DNA of 64,000 nt, from positions 3,168,001-3,232,000 of the forward strand of contig CBDBGH010000003.1 of NCBI GenBank assembly GCA_965205265.1, written 5' to 3'. This DNA is from Alphaproteobacteria bacterium. GTDB lineage: Bacteria > Pseudomonadota > Alphaproteobacteria > Bin95. The position numbers and the translations under genes are program-made. Shown here one piece after another: positions 29,256-37,505 of the stretch (positions are counted from its first letter, which is position 1; each line of letters begins with the position of its first letter). The notes below the pieces were generated by a model, which did no database searches, was not told the DNA's origin, and was given only the letters and a program-made list of their open reading frames with translations.

Positions 29256-29477
29256 CTATGCGGCGTTATCGTGCCGCTGGCTGTCCTGCCGGTTCCATGG
29301 AAGGAGTTCGCCGAGCCGGCTCTGCGGCGTCTCCGCGATCCGGCGCAGGACATCGGCGAGCCAGGCCTGGGGATCGACGTTGTTGAGCTTGGCGGTTCCG
29401 ATGAGGGTATACATGGCCGCGGCGCGCCTGCCGCCGCGGTCGGAGCCGGCGAACAGCCAGGATTTGCGGCCGAGGGC
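29256..29477 (-). pseudogene. tnpC: IS66 tnpC 3' fragment
   Basis: ALGRKSWLFAGSDRGGRRAAAMYTLIGTAKLNNVDPQAWL...LLPWN. Confidence 0.9.
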
Positions 29478-29479
29478 GA

Positions 29480-29962
29480 TCGTGCATTCATTCTGCCCAT
29501 GTCGGGCAGGACTGCGTCATCCATTACCCGTGGCATGCCCATTTCGGCCGCCGTGTCCGCCTTGAAGTTATCGAACAGCGTGCCGACGGCCTCATGGCCT
29601 CTGTCGAGGTAGAGCCCGGGCTGGTCATCAAGATTCCCGCCTGGTCGCTCGATCCTGCGTCATGCGCCGGCATGGAGATCGGCGCGCCGCGTGTATCCCT
29701 GGCCGCTCTTGCCGCGCTTCACGAGGTTCTCGTCGGCCAGGGTTTTAGACGAAGCTCCTCCGCTGACGGGACGGTTAGTGAGGAGGAGCTCAATGAAGTC
29801 TTTGGCTGTACCGGCGAGGCCGCCGGGCGAGTTCCGACAGCTCAGCATGCTGTTGGACACACCGGCGCTGCGTGGCCTGAACCGGGAGGAACGCGACGCG
29901 GTCGTGGGCGCGCTGGCCGGGCTGCTTCTGGAAGCGGCGGATTTCGCGGTGAAGGAGGATGA
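29480..29962 (+). CDS. Accessory ORF of the recombinase element whose proposed start lies at the other end (32052)
   Basis: Open frame SCIHSAHVGQDCVIHYPWHAHFG...IPAWSLDPASCAGM from the att site; first internal ATG only at 29594. Confidence 0.6.
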   Translation, partial: SCIHSAHVGQDCVIHYPWHAHFGRRVRLEVIEQRADGLMASVEVEPGLVIKIPAWSLDPASCAGMEIGAPRVSLAALAALHEVLVGQGFRRSSSADGTVSEEELNEVFGCTGEAAGRVPTAQHAVGHTGAAWPEPGGTRRGRGRAGRAASGSGGFRGEGG

Positions 29963-29978
29963 CGATGAGCACCTCTGA
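29793..29978 (+). CDS. Small ORF (61 aa) overlapping the recombinase start
   Basis: MKSLAVP...RQLSMLLD...LAGLLLEAA after GAGGAGGAG. Confidence 0.6.
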   Translation: MKSLAVPARPPGEFRQLSMLLDTPALRGLNREERDAVVGALAGLLLEAADFAVKEDDDEHL

Positions 29979-32037
29979 TGCGTTGCCGCGATCGGTGTTG
30001 ACGCGCAAGGCCGTGGTTTATGTCCGTCAGTCCACGCCCCAGCAGATGCGGAACAATCTCGAGAGCCAGCGCCGCCAATACGATCTCGTCAACGTGGCGC
30101 GCGGGCACGGTTTCGCCCGGGTTGAGGTCATCGACGAAGATCTGGGCCTGTCGGCGAGTGGCGCCATCGCACGGCCGGGTTTCGAGCGTCTCGTCGCCTG
30201 GCTGTGTGCCGGGGACGTCGGAGCGGTACTTTGCTTCGAGGCGTCTCGCATCTCCCGCAACGGCCGGGACTGGCACCATCTGCTCGAGCTCTGCGGTCTC
30301 GTGGAGGCCCGCGTCATCGACCTGGATGGCATCTATGATCCTCGCCACCCAAACGACCGCTTGCTGCTCGGACTTAAGGGCCAGATCAGTGAGTTCGAAC
30401 TCGGCGTTCTCCGCGCACGGATGCTCGACGCCGCCCGATCCAAGGCAGCGCGCGGCGAGCTTCGCATCAGCGTCCCGATCGGTTACGTGTGGCATCCCCA
30501 AGGCGGGCTGGGGCTGGATCCTGACATTCGGGTTCAGGAAGCGATCCGTCAGATATTCGCCCGATTTCGCGAGCTGGGCAGCGCGCGGCAGGTCCTGTTG
30601 ACGCTGGTCGAGCAGCAGCATTGCTTCCCGCGCCCGTCAGATGGCAGGACAACGGTTAGCTTCGACTGGACGCCGATCCGCTATCGCAATGTGATTTCGG
30701 TATTGAAGAACCCCTTCTACGCTGGTGTCTATGCCTACGGCAAAAGCGAACAACGAACCGAGATCGTCGACGGGCGGGTGCACAAAAGCTATGGCCACCG
30801 GAGACCGATGGCGGAATGGGAGGTCATGCTGAAGGACCATCACGAGGGCTACATCGATTGGGCGGAGTTCGAGCGCAACCAGGCGCAACTCGCCGCCAAC
30901 GCCTTCGGCTGGTCCGGCGGCGCGAAGTCCGGGCGCGGCGGACGGGCGCTGCTGAGCGGACTTCTCAGCTGTGGGCGCTGCGGCCGCTCAATGTCAGTCG
31001 CCTATGCTGGGCAATCACCGGGCAATCCTGTTTATTTCTGCAACCGGCAACACCTCCAGCTCGGGCTCGATCGCTGTCTGAGGTTCGGCGGCGCGCGTGT
31101 GGATGCCGCCATTGCCGATGAGATCATCGGGGTCGTCGAGCCCTTGGCCGTGGAAGCCTCCTTGAAGGCCGAGCGGGTGAAGGTGGAGGGCCTGAGCGAA
31201 CAACAGCGAGTGGCCGAGCTGGACCTGCAGCAAGCCCGCTACGAAGCATCACTCGCCGAGCGGCGCTATGCCGCCTGCGATCCGGACAACCGGTTGATTG
31301 CCGCCGAGCTGGAGAAGAGTTGGGAGGCGGCGCTTCGCCGCGTCCAGGTGTGCGAAGCGCGGCTGGAGGCAATGCGGTCGCCGTCACCGCAGCCCTCGGG
31401 ACCGGATCTGGCCGGGCTTGCCGATGACCTGAAGGCAGCCTGGAACGCGCCGGGGGTGAGCATGCGTGCCCGCCAGCGGCTCGTACGCACCCTGATCGCC
31501 GGCATCGTCGCCGATGTCGACGAGGAAGCGCGCGAAGTCCTGCTGACGATCCACTGGGTCGGTGGCCGCCATTCCCGATTGCGGGTTCGAAAGCCCAGAA
31601 CCGGTGAACATGGCTGCCGAACGCCCGAGGAAGCGCTGGCGGTGATACGCAGCATGGCCGGGCGGTGGTCGGACGAACATATCGCTGCGTCTCTCAACCG
31701 GATGGGCATGCGGACCGGCCAGCACAAGAGCTGGACCGGCAAGCGGGTCGGATCGATCCGTCGCGTGAACGGGATCGACGGCTATCTCTCAGCGGACAAG
31801 CAGGGCGATTGGTACACCATGACCGAGGCGGCGAACGAGTTGGGCACCACCAGCCATACGCTCAGGCGCCTCATCGAGGATGGAACGCTACCCGCCACGC
31901 AGCTCGTTCCCCGAGCGCCTTGGCAGATCAGAGCCGCGGACCTCCATTCAGAGAGCGTTGCTCACGCCCTGGCACAAAGGAAAGGCCCGCGTCGCACTTC
32001 ATGCCGGGATCAGATGTCAATGTTTTCAGATAGTTGA
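29959..32037 (+). CDS. Large serine recombinase with zinc ribbon, coiled coil and C-terminal HTH
   Basis: AVVYVRQST, DEDLGLSASG, EASRISRN, LKNPFYAG, LLSCGRCG, terminal TMTEAANELG..TLRRLI. Confidence 0.95.
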   Translation: MTMSTSDALPRSVLTRKAVVYVRQSTPQQMRNNLESQRRQYDLVNVARGHGFARVEVIDEDLGLSASGAIARPGFERLVAWLCAGDVGAVLCFEASRISRNGRDWHHLLELCGLVEARVIDLDGIYDPRHPNDRLLLGLKGQISEFELGVLRARMLDAARSKAARGELRISVPIGYVWHPQGGLGLDPDIRVQEAIRQIFARFRELGSARQVLLTLVEQQHCFPRPSDGRTTVSFDWTPIRYRNVISVLKNPFYAGVYAYGKSEQRTEIVDGRVHKSYGHRRPMAEWEVMLKDHHEGYIDWAEFERNQAQLAANAFGWSGGAKSGRGGRALLSGLLSCGRCGRSMSVAYAGQSPGNPVYFCNRQHLQLGLDRCLRFGGARVDAAIADEIIGVVEPLAVEASLKAERVKVEGLSEQQRVAELDLQQARYEASLAERRYAACDPDNRLIAAELEKSWEAALRRVQVCEARLEAMRSPSPQPSGPDLAGLADDLKAAWNAPGVSMRARQRLVRTLIAGIVADVDEEAREVLLTIHWVGGRHSRLRVRKPRTGEHGCRTPEEALAVIRSMAGRWSDEHIAASLNRMGMRTGQHKSWTGKRVGSIRRVNGIDGYLSADKQGDWYTMTEAANELGTTSHTLRRLIEDGTLPATQLVPRAPWQIRAADLHSESVAHALAQRKGPRRTSCRDQMSMFSDS

Positions 32038-32065
32038 AGAGGGGGTGCAGAATGACTCCATCGTC

Positions 32066-33468
32066 GCAATACCGCGCAGACAGCGCTCGGCGGCATTGTT
32101 CGAGAGGCAGATGCGCCCGTCGTCGAGGAAGCGGGCGAAGCGGTCCCATCGTCTGAGCATGTAGTCCATGGCCTTGGCGACGGGGGCATGGCGGGAGAGC
32201 CTGGCGCGTTCGGTCTTCATCCAGGTCTTGAGATCGGCGACGAGCGGCGCGCTCAGCTCCTGGCGGACGGCATGGCGCCGCGCGACGGTCTTGCCGTTGA
32301 TGTCGCGCTTGATGTCGAACAGCAGGTCGATCCGCTTCACGGCTTCCATCGCCAGCGGCGAGATCGGCGGCGCGTTCCTGCGCCCCTTGCCGGCGGCAAT
32401 GTCGGCGCGTTCGAAGAATTTGCGTCGACCATGCGCCCAACAGGGAACTTCGGTGACAGGCCCGGGCAGCCGCGTGGCCGCGTAGAGGCGGTTGTAGCCG
32501 GCGAAACTGTCGGCCTGGAGGATGCCGGCGAAGCTCTCCAGGTGCTCGACCGGATGATCGCCGGACCGGTTCCGCGAGTAGCGGAACAGGGCCGCCGGCG
32601 GGTCCGGACCGCCGAACGGCCGGTCGTCGCGGACATAGACCCAGGCCCGGCCCTTGTCGGTCTTGCCCCTGGCCAGCACCGGCACCGGCGTGTCGTCGCC
32701 ATGCAGGCGTTCGGCCGCCATGACATGCGATGCGATCAGGTCGTGCAGCGGCCTCAGCGCCACCGTGCAGGCGCCGACCTGGTCGGCCAGGGTCGACAGG
32801 CTGAGGTCGACGCCTTCGCGCGCGAAGCGGTCGCGCTGGCGGTTCAGCGGCTGGTGCTGCCCATACTTCTCGAAGACGATCGTCGCGAGCAGGTTGGGGC
32901 CCGCCCAGCCGCGCGGCGTCGGGTGGAACGGCGCCGGCGGCTGGCTGATCTTCTCGCAATCGCGGCATGTGAACTTCTCGCGCACCGTCTGGATCACCTT
33001 CCACTGGCGCGGAATGACCTCCAGCGTCTCGGTGACGTCCTCGCCGATCTTGGAGAGCTTCTGCGAGCCGCAGCATGCGCAGGCGTCCGGCGGCGTCACC
33101 ACCACGCGCTCGCGCGGCAGATGCGCGGGGAACGGCTTGCGCCCGAACCGGCGGCGGCGGGTGAAGCCCTTGACCCGGGTCGCGCCGGCCGCCGCCTGTT
33201 CGGCCGCCAACTCGTCCTCGGTCGCGCTCGCCTCGAGCTCGTCTAGCTGGAGTTCCATCTGGTCGAGAAGCCGCTGCTTGCGCTCCGAACGCTGGCCGAA
33301 AAGCGCGCGGCGGAGCTTCTCGATCATCAGCTTCAGGGCGGCGATCTGCGCTTCGGCGTCGGATACCTGCGCCGCCGCGTTCGCGGCCCGCGCCTCGGCC
33401 TCGCTGGCCTTGGCTTCCGACGCCGCCAGCGCCGCCTTCAGCGCGTCGATCTCCGATCCGTCCGGCAT
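32066..33468 (-). pseudogene. tnpC: IS66 tnpC 5' part
   Basis: LFGQRSE, CACCGS, LHGDDTPV, LQADSFAGY, CWAHGRRKF, SNNAAERCLRGIA then break. Confidence 0.92.
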
Positions 33469-33539
33469 GAACGGAAGCGAATCACAACAGCCGCTGCGCC
33501 GCCATGCCAATCCTGTCCGGTGAGTCCATTTGCCGCCCG

Positions 33540-33887
33540 TCAGCCGGCCCGCGACGGACGCCAGGTCCGCACCGGGTTGCGCCAGTCGATCCCCTCAAGC
33601 AGGTAGCCGAGCTGCGCCGCGCTGATCGACACCGCCTCGCCCGAAGCCGAAGGCCAGGGGAACCGGCCGCGCTCCAGGCGCTTGGCGTAGAGCGACGTGC
33701 CGATCCCGTCGGTCCAGAGAATCTTCACGAGGTCGCCCTTGCGTCCGCGGAATATGAAGAGATCGCCCGCATGCGGGTCCCGCCCGAGACCCTGCTGGAC
33801 CTGCAGCGCCAGCGTGTTCATCCCGCGCCGCATGTCCGTCACGCCGGTCGCCAGCCACACCCGCGCTCCGCTCGGAACCGGGATCAT
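33540..33887 (-). CDS. tnpB: IS66 accessory protein TnpB
   Basis: TDMRRGMNTL, FIFRGRKGDLVKILW, YAKRLERGRF. Confidence 0.95.
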   Translation of the reverse strand: MIPVPSGARVWLATGVTDMRRGMNTLALQVQQGLGRDPHAGDLFIFRGRKGDLVKILWTDGIGTSLYAKRLERGRFPWPSASGEAVSISAAQLGYLLEGIDWRNPVRTWRPSRAG

Positions 33888-34297
33888 CGCCGCTCCAGAA
33901 CCCCGAGAACCCGCGACAGAGCCGCCGCGTCCACATCCCGGTCGACCGTCACACGCGAGCCGTCCGCCAGGGCAATCTCCATACGCCCGGAGGAAGACGC
34001 CTCGATAGCCGGCGGCGCCGGCAGCAGCTTCGCCGGGTCCGCCCCCTCCATCGAAGAGACGACTACCGGGACGAAGCCGCCCGCCATACGCGCCAGCTCC
34101 CGATACTGGCGGCGCCAGCTGAAGACCAGGTTCGCGTTCACGTCATGACGCCGCGCCACCACCGAAACCGAAATCCCCGGCTGGTAGCTCTCCGTCACGA
34201 CCTGCCGCTTGCGCGCCTCGCTCCAGCGACGGCGGCGGCGGCGAACCCGAACCTCGCCCCCGGCCCCCGAATGCTCCGCGTCGTCCGACATACGCAT
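33884..34297 (-). CDS. tnpA: IS66 TnpA (HTH)
   Basis: RRRWSEARKRQVV, SVVARRHDVNANLVFSWRRQY. Confidence 0.9.
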   Translation of the reverse strand: MRMSDDAEHSGAGGEVRVRRRRRRWSEARKRQVVTESYQPGISVSVVARRHDVNANLVFSWRRQYRELARMAGGFVPVVVSSMEGADPAKLLPAPPAIEASSSGRMEIALADGSRVTVDRDVDAAALSRVLGVLERR

Positions 34298-34401
34298 AGT
34301 GTCCACTTGTCCTTGATGGACACCCAAGCGCGCCCATCCCCGAGCGCGAACCCTCGCCGATCCACGACAAAGCCGACAGGCGGTCTACGACGTAGGCTTA
34401 C

Positions 34402-35557
34402 GGTAACGCGCCCGGCGCGGGTTCGTTCGACGGCGCCGAGCCACTGGAACTTCTCGCGGTTTCTGGGGCGTGTTGTGCAGCTTGAGGACGAGCAGGGGCT
34501 GGTGTCCGCCATGATCGAGAGCCTGCGGGCGGCGCTGTTCGCCGCGTTGCCGGACTTCGGGCGTCACCTCGGCTACGACGGCAAGGCGCTCGCGAGCCAC
34601 TCGACGGGCCGGGTCGGCAAGGACAAGGGCAAGACCTCGGACCCCGACGCCGACTGGGGCAAGCACGAGACGGGCGGGGTGGACGCCAGGACCGGCGCGG
34701 TGTGGAAGAAGGTGAAGTCGTGGTTCGGCTACGGGCTGCACCTGATCGCCGACACCGATTACGAGGTTCCGGTGGCCTTCGAGGTGACGCGCGCTTCGGC
34801 CTCGGAACCCAGGGTGCTGTCCGGGATGCTGGAGGAGCTGTTCGCAAGGGCGCCGGAGATCGCCGGGCGCTGCGCCGACTTCAGCGCCGACCGCGGTCTC
34901 GACGATGCCCGCCTGAAGGCGCGGCTGTGGGACCGGTGGACCGCCCGCCCGCAGATCGATACACGGCTGATGTGGCGGGTGGAGAAGCAGGAGCCGAGAT
35001 ACGATCCGGCGCAGCCGATCACGCGGCCGCTGTTCCCCGACCGCGCCGATGTCATCGTTCACGACGAGCGCGGCCGGGTGTCCTGCGTCTGTCCCGGGAC
35101 CGGCGAGGTCCGCGCCATGGCGTTTCAGGGGTTCGAGGCTGATCGAGGCCGCTGCGGCACGCTCAAATACCGCTGCCCGGCAGCCGCCTTCGGCTTCGCC
35201 TGCGCCGGCAGCCGGGCCTGCCACCGGGCCGGCGGGGTCAAGCCCGGAGACCATGGCCGCATCCTGCGCATCGACCTCGACAGCCACGACCGGCGCATCT
35301 TCACCCCCACGCCTTGGGGCAGTCCGTCATGGCGGCGCGGCTATAACCGCCGCTCGGCCATGGAGCGGATCAACAGCCGCCTCGACAACAGCTTCAACTT
35401 CGAGACCCACTACATCCGAGGCCGCGCCAGGATGAAGACCCGCCTCGCCCTCGCCCTGGCGGTGATGATGGCGATGGCTCTCGCCCAGGCCCGCGCCGGC
35501 CGCCCCGAGCGCATGCGTTCCCTGGTCGGCGCCGTGCCGTATCTCGACACCGGATGA
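34402..35557 (+). pseudogene. 5'-truncated DDE transposase (IS1182/IS5-like)
   Basis: YDGK, SDPDADWG, WFGYGLHLIAD, ADRGLD, YNRRSAMERINSRL; N-terminus replaced by the IS66 end. Confidence 0.75.
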
Positions 35558-35793
35558 CCGCTCATCCGCCTCCCGACAATCCTGCCCGACCCCGCCGCCC
35601 GACGGCAGAGGGGAAGACACGCCCGCACGCCAGACAATCTTCCGGTAATCGTACTTGTCAGGCCCCGGAAGCCCGTATCCTGCCCGGTGGGGAAGCGGGC
35701 CGGACGATATTCGACCGCCAAAATCGAACCGGCGACAGCCAAAAATCACCACAGCGCACATTTCTCGGTGGGTGCACGTCGCATTTGTGAGAT

Positions 35794-37137
35794 TCATGGT
35801 ATTGCGCCGGCTCGTCGTTCCCAGAAGTCGTCGAAGCGATTGCTCTCGACGGCGCAGCGCAGGGCGATGATGGCGTTGGCGCCGTTGACGGTCCAGCGCA
35901 TGCCTCCCTGCTTGAGGCGGGCGCCGACGATGTTCTTGCAGCCGCCCTCGACCACGCCGCTGGCCACGCACAAGCCCATCGCGCGGAACTTCGGGTAGTT
36001 CATGCGCTCGCGGTTGTTGGTGAAATACTCGGCGTTCTTGCGGGCGTTCTCGCAAGTTTCGGCATGGCCCTTGAGGGCGGCGATCACCTCGTCGACGCGG
36101 CCCTCGTCGAGTTCCTCGCGCCGCTTCCCGGCCCATCGCTCACCGATCTCGCTGCCGGTCCCGTAGATCGCCTTGGCTGCGTCGAACAGGTGGCCCTTGG
36201 CATGGAAGATGTCGACGATCTGGATGGCGTCGGGGAAGTGCTCATCGGCGAAGTTCCAGATCCACGGCGCGCCGTCGCCGAGGATGACCCGGCGCTCGGC
36301 CGTGTCGAAGCCGCGGCGTTCGGCCTCGCGGATGACACGCCGGGCGAAGGGCGCGGGCTCGGGGTCGAACTCGCGGGTGGCGATGGATTCGATGGCGGCG
36401 TTGTAGGTGGCGGAGCCGGGGTCGCGCACCGGACGCCCCTCCCTGTCGACGGTCTCCGCCGACCACACGACGGCGAGCTTGGCCTCGCGGGTGCTGGCGG
36501 AGCCGTCGGGCTGCTTGCCCGCGCGGCCCTCGACCTCGGTCTTGCGCGCCGGCACGCCGGTGCCGTCGAGGCCGAGATAGAGGGTGGGGGCGTCGGACGG
36601 CTCGGGTTCGATCACGCGGCATTCGTCGCCTGCGATCTCTCGCCCGAGCGCCTCGGCATGGCGTTCGACCGTCTTCGGCGCGACAGCCAGGCCTGCCAGT
36701 TCGCGCAACAGGGCGCTGGAGCCCTCGAAGCTGGTACGGGCAGCAGCAACGCCGATCATGCGCAGCGCCGCCGGTGAGAGGAAAGTATCTTGCATGCCGA
36801 GGGTTCGATCACGCGGGCTGAAGCCGCGGTGGCAACGGTCGCAGTGATACCAGGCGCGCTCCAGCGTCAGAGGGCCGAGAGCGGTGGTGAAGGTCTTGGG
36901 CCGGCGGCCGGCGAAGCGCGCCTCGCCGCCGCACGCACACGACAGCCACGGTCCCCGGTTGTCGGAACGGTCGGCATTGAGCCTGTGGGCGACGGCCTGC
37001 CCCATGATCTGCAACGCAACCCGCCGCGCTTCGATCTCGATCGCCTGGAAGTCATCGACGACGCCCGCGCCGATCAGCCACTCGACCTCGGCCTCGACCT
37101 CCTCCGCGATCGCTGCGTCGAGACCCCCCTTTTTCCC
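35794..37137 (-). CDS. ISKra4 transposase, probably reached by -1 frameshift
   Basis: LDGTG, LGDGAPWIW, DIFHAKGHL, SGVVEGGCK, RLKQGGMRW. Confidence 0.88.
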   Translation of the reverse strand, partial: GKKGGLDAAIAEEVEAEVEWLIGAGVVDDFQAIEIEARRVALQIMGQAVAHRLNADRSDNRGPWLSCACGGEARFAGRRPKTFTTALGPLTLERAWYHCDRCHRGFSPRDRTLGMQDTFLSPAALRMIGVAAARTSFEGSSALLRELAGLAVAPKTVERHAEALGREIAGDECRVIEPEPSDAPTLYLGLDGTGVPARKTEVEGRAGKQPDGSASTREAKLAVVWSAETVDREGRPVRDPGSATYNAAIESIATREFDPEPAPFARRVIREAERRGFDTAERRVILGDGAPWIWNFADEHFPDAIQIVDIFHAKGHLFDAAKAIYGTGSEIGERWAGKRREELDEGRVDEVIAALKGHAETCENARKNAEYFTNNRERMNYPKFRAMGLCVASGVVEGGCKNIVGARLKQGGMRWTVNGANAIIALRCAVESNRFDDFWERRAGAIP

Positions 37138-37505
37138 GGCGCGGCCGGCTTGTCCGCGTCCAGCCTGGCATCGCATATCCGGCCGCTGACCTCGACAAGC
37201 GCGCGCACCAGACCGCGAAGCCGCTGGTATTCCGCGATCTGCGCCCGCGTTCCCTCAATGGCGTCGGCGGGAACGGTGCGGCCGCGGGACTTCCCTGTCT
37301 CCCTGTCCGGCCAAGTCAACAACCAGTAGGGGCCATGCCCCTGCGCCCCCTCGACCGCGCAATGGCAGTTCGGTTTGCCGCACTTGCGGTACTGTGCCCT
37401 GAGCGAACCCTGACGGAGGTCGCCGATGCCCGCAATCTCCCGCAGCAGCTCGCCACGCTGTTCGACGAGGCCGTCGTGATCGGTCCTGGCCATGTCCGCC
37501 TCCAT
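37074..37505 (-). CDS. ISKra4 upstream ORF (DUF6788-like)
   Basis: GSLRAQYRKCGKPNCHCA...GHGPYW. Confidence 0.8.
   Translation of the reverse strand: MEADMARTDHDGLVEQRGELLREIAGIGDLRQGSLRAQYRKCGKPNCHCAVEGAQGHGPYWLLTWPDRETGKSRGRTVPADAIEGTRAQIAEYQRLRGLVRALVEVSGRICDARLDADKPAAPGKRGVSTQRSRRRSRPRSSG

Follow-up and report, generated by a model that had tools for sequence, protein, structure and literature searches.

The 64,000-nucleotide stretch analysed here (the window; positions 3,168,001 to 3,232,000 of contig CBDBGH010000003.1, from the genome of an Alphaproteobacteria bacterium) carries a 2590-bp element, counting one GC, at window positions 29478–32067, inserted into an IS66-family transposase gene, tnpC, on the minus strand and bordered on both sides by a duplicated GC (Table 1). 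Its sole genes are that of a large serine recombinase (LSR), a short gene that we call orfB, and an accessory gene, orfA, whose body at the left end lacks a start codon, while a Shine–Dalgarno (SD)-like block and an ATG stand at the right end, just after the recombinase gene. As the element's own attachment site interrupts orfA, the gene is complete only where the two ends are joined, on an excised circle or at any head-to-tail junction. This split is confirmed at the level of sequence, and it is conserved in related elements.

Table 1. Features of the element and of the interrupted transposase gene, in window coordinates
Feature	Position	Strand	Evidence
tnpC, C-terminal part (left flank; element antisense to tnpC)	29256..29475	-	PF13817 DDE_Tnp_IS66_C E 7.4e-19
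Left GC crossover dinucleotide (attL core)	29476..29477	.	single GC in empty paralogue
P' half-site, left-end arm of the inverted repeat, also orfA codons 1–6	29478..29496	+	
orfA body, 160 codons + stop, no start codon before 29594	29480..29962	+	
orfB, 61 aa, acidic C terminus, own strong SD GAGGAGGAG + ATG	29793..29978	+	GC by codon position
LSR, 692 aa	29959..32037	+	PF00239, PF07508, PF13408, HTH_17
SD-like purine block AGAGGGGG, 6 nt upstream of the junction ATG	32038..32045	+	
orfA start codon + first 5 1/3 codons, inside the P half-site (32047–32065) and into the right GC core (32066–67)	32052..32067	+	
tnpC, N-terminal part (right flank)	32068..33510	-	PF03050 E 3.4e-80, PF13007, PF13005

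An insertion-sequence-like element with a large serine recombinase

The two halves of tnpC join at codons I-A and L-G: the reading frame resumes across the insertion in the left-flank part, and the PF03050 match of the right-flank half reaches profile position 265 of 284. An intact tnpC paralogue in the same genome has the site uninterrupted, with one GC, as is expected of crossover at a 2-bp core that is equal at both junctions. Five copies of the element occur in the genome with 0 mismatches over 2590 nt, in tnpC genes of differing flank sequence and, for one copy, at an unrelated site with nothing but the left half-site and the GC in common. Five identical copies with differing flanks, together with the empty paralogue, indicate that both the boundaries and the 2-bp core are genuine and that the element moved recently.

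The two 19-nt arms beside the cores match at 14 of 19 positions by our own count, and with the cores included they form an inverted repeat of 21 nt, 76% complementary, which was the longest inverted pair that a repeat search found in the region. That search returned 122 inverted pairs, and since pairs of such quality are common in this GC-rich DNA the repeat alone proves nothing; it carries weight because it is kept at the ends of related elements. Everything that a preliminary description of this DNA had stated about the letters themselves (the GC at either junction, the recombinase stop, the ATG behind it and the 14/19 symmetry of the arms) was verified.

The recombinase matches PF00239 (E 8.1e-22, residues 18–167), PF07508 (E 4.5e-17) and PF13408 (E 2.8e-7). 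Across 26 aligned sequences, Ser25 in an R-Q-S motif is invariant, as expected of the nucleophilic serine of an LSR, and so are Cys338, Cys341, Cys361 and Cys373, in keeping with the Recombinase and zinc-ribbon domains of that family. A methionine at the third residue is conserved among relatives, and the alignment suggests that the real start is the ATG at 29965; the gene ends with a TGA at 32035–37. Residues 618–663 form a C-terminal HTH_17/excisionase-type DNA-binding domain (PF12728 E 1.9e-6; TIGR01764 29.1 bits against a cut-off of 28.8), kept in relatives. The GC content of orfB by codon position (0.79/0.41/0.80) has the pattern of a real gene, and its peptide is conserved in relatives as an acidic product of about 55–62 aa with its own SD and start; it has no match in Pfam, NCBIfam or PHROGs.

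Short (2590 bp), present in 5 copies, with defined ends and genes of mobility only, the element has the features by which insertion sequences are operationally recognized. Judged from its sequence, it is an insertion-sequence-like element moved by an LSR, with dinucleotide crossover in a roughly palindromic site of IS66-family tnpC.

A gene body and its start at opposite ends

From the junction ATG (32052–54), four codons and one base lead to 32067, a distance of 16 nt to the end of the core, and at the left end two nucleotides past the core precede the first full codon of orfA, so that joining the ends brings the ATG into frame with orfA. The orfA frame read from 29478 is that of the open reading frame listed as 29594..29962, and it contains no ATG, GTG or TTG between an upstream stop near 29401 and 29594. 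Its stop overlaps the annotated ATG of the LSR gene; the ATG that corresponds to the LSR starts of relatives in the alignment follows 2 nt later. The joined frame of 166 codons proposed in the preliminary description is correct (6 + 38 + 122 codons).

A profile scan over one genome per prokaryote species yielded 364 tblastn-confirmed stretches (loci) encoding an orfA relative, of which the best 80 were analysed; counts of 81 loci include the window, and the 42 elements with both ends readable are 41 of these loci and the window. Record titles place the hosts mostly among Alphaproteobacteria, including Mesorhizobium, Sinorhizobium/Ensifer, Paracoccus and Azospirillum; full-length genes are found, among others, in Azospirillum halopraeferens DSM 3675 (L070), Jannaschia formosa 12N15 (L063) and strains of Mesorhizobium (L059, L085). 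In 42/42 elements an in-frame ATG precedes the core by 14 nt; the distance from the LSR stop to the ATG is usually 14 nt as well. The core dinucleotide (GC, AC, TT, AG or GG) is equal at both junctions in 34/42, the eight mismatches including a swapped-core pair, L067/L068, and a chimeric contig, L036. The joined reading frame is free of stops in 41 of the 42; the exception is again L036, a 2.8-kb contig with two different cores, whose junctions probably derive from different copies. L067 and L068, which belong to one metagenome-assembled genome, carry GC on the left and AC on the right and AC on the left and GC on the right, respectively, as if ends had been swapped between copies.

By eye, the same 16-nt in-frame geometry is found in three more distant clades, in the elements L026, L029, L030, L146, L149, L150, L153 and L154, whose recombinases are about 47–70% identical to that of the window (L029 uses GTG). 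The frame across the attachment site of the joined ends (attP) is thus not random among homologues; a random frame was one of three findings that the preliminary description had named in advance as counting against it.

The SD-like block is likewise conserved: it precedes the ATG in 46/46 right ends, 29 of which have it in the strict form GGAG, GAGG or AGGA, and it occurs in 0/46 at the corresponding mirror position in the left arm, which places it outside the symmetry of the repeat. In two lineages, represented by L066–68 and L110, LSR stop and ATG share nucleotides (ATGA/TAATG), as is the habit of coupled operon genes. With an SD and an ATG at the right end, a start-less body at the left end and conservation of this arrangement, the ends have, in sequence, the make-up of a signal assembled at the junction.

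Coding constraint in the start-less body

We compared differences by codon position pairwise among 59 distinct orfA sequences. Codons 1–7 differ at positions 1/2/3 by 0.145/0.194/0.206, a flat profile, and such low and even variation at all positions indicates constraint at the DNA level by the P' arm motif. Codons 8–38 differ by 0.29/0.27/0.56, and codons 39–60 and 61–90 (two bins) by 0.33–0.36/0.24–0.26/0.53–0.60, all with the third-position excess of protein-coding sequence. His15, Tyr16, His19 and Gly23 are invariant in 41 sequences, and all lie upstream of Met39 (29594), which is itself not conserved, being I, V, L or F in relatives. An AlphaFold2 model of OrfA has a mean predicted local distance difference test score (pLDDT) of 82.9, with residues 11–60 at 94–96, and shows an SH3-like barrel of four strands with helices after it; two of these strands lie upstream of Met39.

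These data bear on a rival account, in which translation begins at Met 29594 and yields 122 aa or there is no coding region at all, the conservation upstream reflecting DNA signals such as attP, accessory sites or a promoter. The listing of open reading frames begins there, at least one public annotation starts downstream (the Sinorhizobium plasmid described below), and codons 1–7 do behave as a DNA motif; against this stand the clear third-position excess in codons 8–38, the variability of Met39 itself, the invariant residues and confidently modelled strands ahead of it, and the inclusion of residues 18–21 in the predicted interface with the recombinase. We regard a start at Met 29594, or a non-coding region, as highly improbable, the least likely of the accounts weighed here. 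Conservation upstream of this methionine, whose absence was the second finding that the preliminary description would have taken against itself, is therefore present and of protein-coding type.

In public plasmid records the gene is mostly missed. A tblastn search gave 199 records with an orfA relative; of the best 25, which were inspected, 5 have a feature under the orfA match, 17 have none and 3 are unannotated. In a Sinorhizobium plasmid (L112:3633-3971) the annotated coding sequence begins about 44 codons into the match, a late start that fits a gene without a start codon. The split would explain why conserved orfA is mostly unannotated or mis-started in public records.

The conserved DUF5372-like domain occupies codons 8–95, and codons 105–160 overlap orfB. 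In the overlap the least variable position is the orfA third, which is the orfB second, so that selection there acts on OrfB and not on the orfA frame. Of the 166-aa protein put forward in the preliminary description, then, the length of the frame stands, whereas the last 56 codons are selected in the orfB frame only. In 66/69 loci no stop closes the orfA frame until a few nucleotides from the LSR start, the three exceptions being degraded copies; judged by how often stops occur in the equivalent frame of the LSR gene, an open stretch of such length is expected about 0.36 of the time per independent sequence. We infer that the frame is kept open over orfB by selection for the passage of ribosomes rather than for a peptide. 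In another metagenome-assembled genome (L031:4501-8630), the aligned OrfA residues are 100% identical, and about 1.9 kb is inserted between orfA and orfB.

The window OrfA has no Pfam match at E 0.1 and none in NCBIfam or PHROGs. Its nearest language-model clusters in the ESM Atlas are all DUF5372 (score 0.93, a level that 4–10 of 100 shuffled proteins also reach), and the PF17342 (DUF5372) hidden Markov model matches 3 of 41 relatives, with a best E of 3.7e-5. Fold comparison found no chain in the PDB at E < 0.1, the weak top matches being SH3-, Tudor-, KOW- or chromo-like barrels that point to no function, and a profile search of PDB sequences returned matches at chance level only (E > 1). 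OrfA is probably a distant DUF5372 relative, a small SH3-like protein; the genes that the DUF5372 model of Pfam picks out in other genomes are likewise situated upstream of LSR genes.

Starts available in the integrated state

A gene whose body is cut from its ATG might be translated from elsewhere when integrated. The first in-frame ATG, GTG or TTG within the element falls at codon 25 or later in 67/81 loci, so that no conserved start of orfA's own lies inside the left end; the presence of such a start was the third of the findings that the preliminary description had set against its claim. Among the 71 loci whose integrated flank could be assessed, 43, the window among them, offer no in-frame start before the stop, and 5 offer GTG or TTG only. 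With most elements lacking an early start and most flanks lacking any, the majority of integrated copies have no canonical start from which the conserved N-terminal third of the domain could be made.

Several observations weigh against taking the joined ends for a regulatory device. An in-frame ATG before the stop is present in the flank of the other 23/71 loci, a GTG or ATG stands at orfA codons 10–14 in 12/81, and OrfA may also use non-canonical starts. The main weakness of the case is that the junction ATG lies inside the symmetry of attP: it is the mirror of a His codon, CAT, in the other arm, both in the symmetric part of the repeat, and so recombination alone would be expected to preserve the ATG and its spacing. 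A scan found no promoter-like site and no + strand terminator, with a consensus that may not fit this host. And in L119, the one canonical DUF5372 element among L114 and L119–L122 whose ends could be mapped (from three copies), some 197 nt separate the left end from the domain downstream, every frame is interrupted by stops, and the DUF5372 gene, which probably starts at a TTG, is unsplit, yet an SD and an ATG follow the LSR stop all the same.

Avoidance of stops at the junction was considered as evidence of translation and rejected: no in-frame stops are found where shuffles lead one to expect 5.6, and the other frames are equally stop-free (0/251, 0/216 and 1/215 codons in the three frames). 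The split as a trait of all DUF5372–LSR elements was likewise discarded on account of L119. Because the DUF5372 gene there is unsplit, the split is a trait of the clades studied and not of the whole family, and because L119 has an SD and an ATG nevertheless, a right-end ATG can exist without a split. The junction dinucleotides of L119 are unequal under the geometry of the main clade.

On these grounds one may hold that the split is real but has no regulatory meaning, the ATG and the purine block being parts of attP and OrfA being made in the integrated state as well, from the flank, from GTG or ATG at codons 10–14, or from a non-canonical start such as the ATC at codon 14 behind AGGA. The symmetric placement of the ATG, the stop avoidance in every frame, the starts offered by some flanks and elements and the signals of unsplit L119 all speak for this account, as do metagenome homologues P0001–P0005, which we had considered as circle forms and rejected: gene callers gave them N termini that read as flank-encoded, the first residues being translated antisense tnpC. 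Against it are the flanks and elements without a start, which include the five identical, presumably active, copies; the asymmetry of the SD-like block between the two arms; and the overlap of LSR stop and ATG, of the type seen in coupled genes, in some lineages. We judge a split without regulatory meaning unlikely, though by no means negligible. Of the earlier claim that the full protein is made only after excision, the split itself stands as conserved, coding and start-less, and the word "only" is qualified by the 23 loci with a flank ATG and the 12 with an early GTG or ATG.

Joined ends in sequence data

In the Logan contigs of four element-bearing runs, a type of assembly from which rare forms drop out, the integrated form and empty sites are present and no joint of the element's two ends is; the element appears there as a unitig of 2593 nt at about 2x the depth of its flanks, and run X7 has empty-site joints. 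Nor was the joined-arm pattern present in 132 loci, five multi-copy genomes or viral contigs. Given the loss of rare forms, the absence from the run contigs tells neither for nor against the circle; the absence of the pattern counts against the joined form.

A scan for the two arm motifs at joined spacing found two metagenome contigs, L133 and L134. L133 runs from the 3' end of an LSR gene (55% identical, aa 579–674) through an SD, an ATG and an intact joined site with an AC core into orfA, contiguous and in frame; an IS3-family element interrupts this orfA, for which reason L133 is not a transient circle. L134 (L134:230-1053) is a remnant: behind the 3' end of an LSR gene come a joined site, intact, and 17 codons of orfA, which continue in frame into the C-terminal part of an IS66-family TnpC, a fusion that could stem from integration through a secondary site inside orfA. 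As far as these two contigs tell, joined DNA exists in relatives, apparently as stable DNA and not demonstrably as free circles. Mining for the attP junction, as the preliminary description had advised, thus gave joined sites in contigs of two relatives and none in those of this organism.

The apparent stability of both contigs, one a remnant and the other carrying an IS3-family element, invites the view that the relevant joined form is a head-to-tail tandem or a permuted chromosomal insertion with an intact attP, from which OrfA would be made constitutively. Such a junction is, however, absent from the 132 loci, from the five multi-copy genomes and from the five copies of the window's own genome, each of which is one 2590-nt unit whose flanks were read at both junctions, and the integrated single copy is the overwhelming form; we consider a chromosomal joined form of this kind very improbable.

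Predicted contact between OrfA and the recombinase

Structure prediction of an OrfA–LSR complex from our own alignments gave a score of 0.66, against 0.00 for the best control; in a benchmark this mark was reached by 58/80 solved complexes and 2/110 mismatched pairs. Three runs agree in at least 80% of contacts, with a partner pLDDT of 70–72. The predicted interface pairs OrfA residues 18–21, 50–53 and 65–90 with LSR residues 337–344, 388–405, 481–517 and 530–540, which would place OrfA on the zinc ribbon and both ends of the coiled coil. The base formed by zinc ribbon and coiled coil is the region where the directionality factors of serine integrases act. This binding result is a model score and not a measurement, and it is the ground for the putative role of switch or directionality factor suggested in the preliminary description. 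If a factor appears only once excision has taken place, one would expect it to promote integration or to counteract an excision factor, for which OrfB is a candidate.

A probable switch read by translation

We think it probable, on balance, that the split is a functional switch, with OrfA made from the joined form and biasing the recombinase. Transcripts that run through the LSR gene would, on the joined form, cross attP and permit translation of OrfA, which would bind the recombinase at the base of zinc ribbon and coiled coil and bias either that enzyme or its expression according to the state of the element, most plausibly towards re-integration of a circle that does not replicate. Ribosomes that set out from the junction ATG may also override orfB and couple into translation of the recombinase.

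A fuller version, possible if less than likely, has a widespread family of elements without genes other than those of recombination, living inside other insertion sequences at conserved motifs of IS66 TnpC, IS21 IstB and IS110 transposase genes, sense their own topology by translation: OrfA would be a circle-only, "inverse" directionality factor that drives re-integration, and ribosomes travelling over orfB would reinitiate at the LSR gene, flipping the ratio of OrfB to recombinase. If the switch is true, it would be a minimal and self-contained means for a mobile element to tell the integrated from the free state, at the level of the open reading frame and not of the promoter. It would then bear on how LSRs have their directionality set without the regulatory circuits of a phage, and so on the understanding of serine-recombinase transposition; as LSRs are tools of genome integration, a small protein that biases their direction would be useful.

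Targets and neighbourhood

Among the 80 related loci, the target is IS66-family tnpC, at the same codons, in antisense orientation for 50 and in sense orientation for 8; 12 have no match in this flank test and 10 are at contig ends; insertion in both orientations fits a roughly palindromic target. L029, L030 and L146 are inserted in an IstB_IS21 gene at the Walker A motif (PF01695 E 1.6e-44), and L149, L150, L153 and L154 in an IS110-family transposase gene (PF01548 E 2.2e-10), likewise at a conserved motif, these IstB- and IS110-targeting clades having the core dinucleotides GG, GA, GT and AC. To judge from such flanks, the element family is strongly target-specific for other insertion sequences. 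The right flank of L119 (G214:C22) shows by eye, on the reverse strand, a P-Y-Y-P-Q motif like that of an rve-type transposase, and its clade may also target a transposase gene. One genome, G614, has nine matches.

Two copies at G000:C3:2326434-2332103 (L003 and L004) stand inverted to each other about 250 bp apart with their left ends facing, and L004 has a different IS66 variant as its right flank; the arrangement suggests that copies have recombined or undergone inversion with each other. In the window, the region 33540–37176 is a nest of insertion sequences, with an IS66 tnpB (PF05717) and a putative tnpA beside the interrupted tnpC, a DDE_Tnp_1 transposase at 34145–35557 and a UPF0236-like open reading frame at 35794–37176.

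Comparison with known systems

The recombination directionality factors of large serine integrases include gp47 of Bxb1, gp3 of phiC31 and SprB of SPbeta. Like them, OrfA is a small accessory protein encoded beside an LSR, and it is predicted to sit at the zinc-ribbon/coiled-coil base; unlike them, it has no relationship to them in sequence or fold. The opposite polarity is suggested, since the known factors are made in the integrated state for excision and OrfA would be made after excision. DUF5372 (PF17342) genes share with orfA the position upstream of an LSR gene and differ in being unsplit in L119.

The transposases of the IS607 family belong to the small serine recombinases and carry their DNA-binding domain at the N terminus. 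The present element resembles that family in being small, multi-copy and moved by a serine recombinase, without DDE chemistry; it differs in that its recombinase scores 18 bits on NF033518, against a cut-off of 110, and has the Recombinase and zinc-ribbon domains of LSRs.

Closer in principle are Tn4451 and Tn4453 of Clostridium, which are reportedly moved by the LSR TnpX through a circular intermediate, the joining of whose ends is said to assemble the promoter of the recombinase. There as here, a transposable element moved by an LSR gains an expression signal when its ends join. In the clostridial elements that signal is the recombinase promoter, whereas here it is an SD, an ATG and 5 1/3 codons that are joined to the body of an accessory gene, and the present element is cargo-less, 2.6 kb long and lodged in transposase genes. 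That a promoter is formed on the joined ends of the Tn4451 circle is also conveyed by the title of a reference (Lyras & Rood 2000) in PMC13023037.

A gene divided by integration is familiar from the SSV-type archaeal tyrosine integrases, in which, according to a passage of PMC7253208, the attachment site lies inside the gene, integration splits it and the circle has it whole. There the recombinase is a tyrosine recombinase and the integrase itself is parted into two large pieces; here the recombinase stays intact, and it is an accessory gene that loses its start and five codons. Tn916, ICEclc (Pcirc) and ICEKp1 (P3'end), as an excerpt of PMC13023037 describes them, have read-through or junction promoters, so that transcription crosses attP only after circularization; what depends on the circle in those elements is the transcription of intact genes, whereas here the open reading frame itself is discontinuous when integrated.

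A full-text literature search, with subscription journals largely outside its reach, returned no description of this element family or of an accessory gene assembled at attP, and no paper that mentions DUF5372, although the recombinases themselves may figure in the supplements of an LSR survey (bioRxiv 10.1101/2021.11.05.467528); the family, which specifically disrupts other insertion sequences, is apparently unreported. Junction-dependent expression is known in mobile elements. New here is a crossover site that, in a serine-recombinase element, parts an accessory gene from its translation start.

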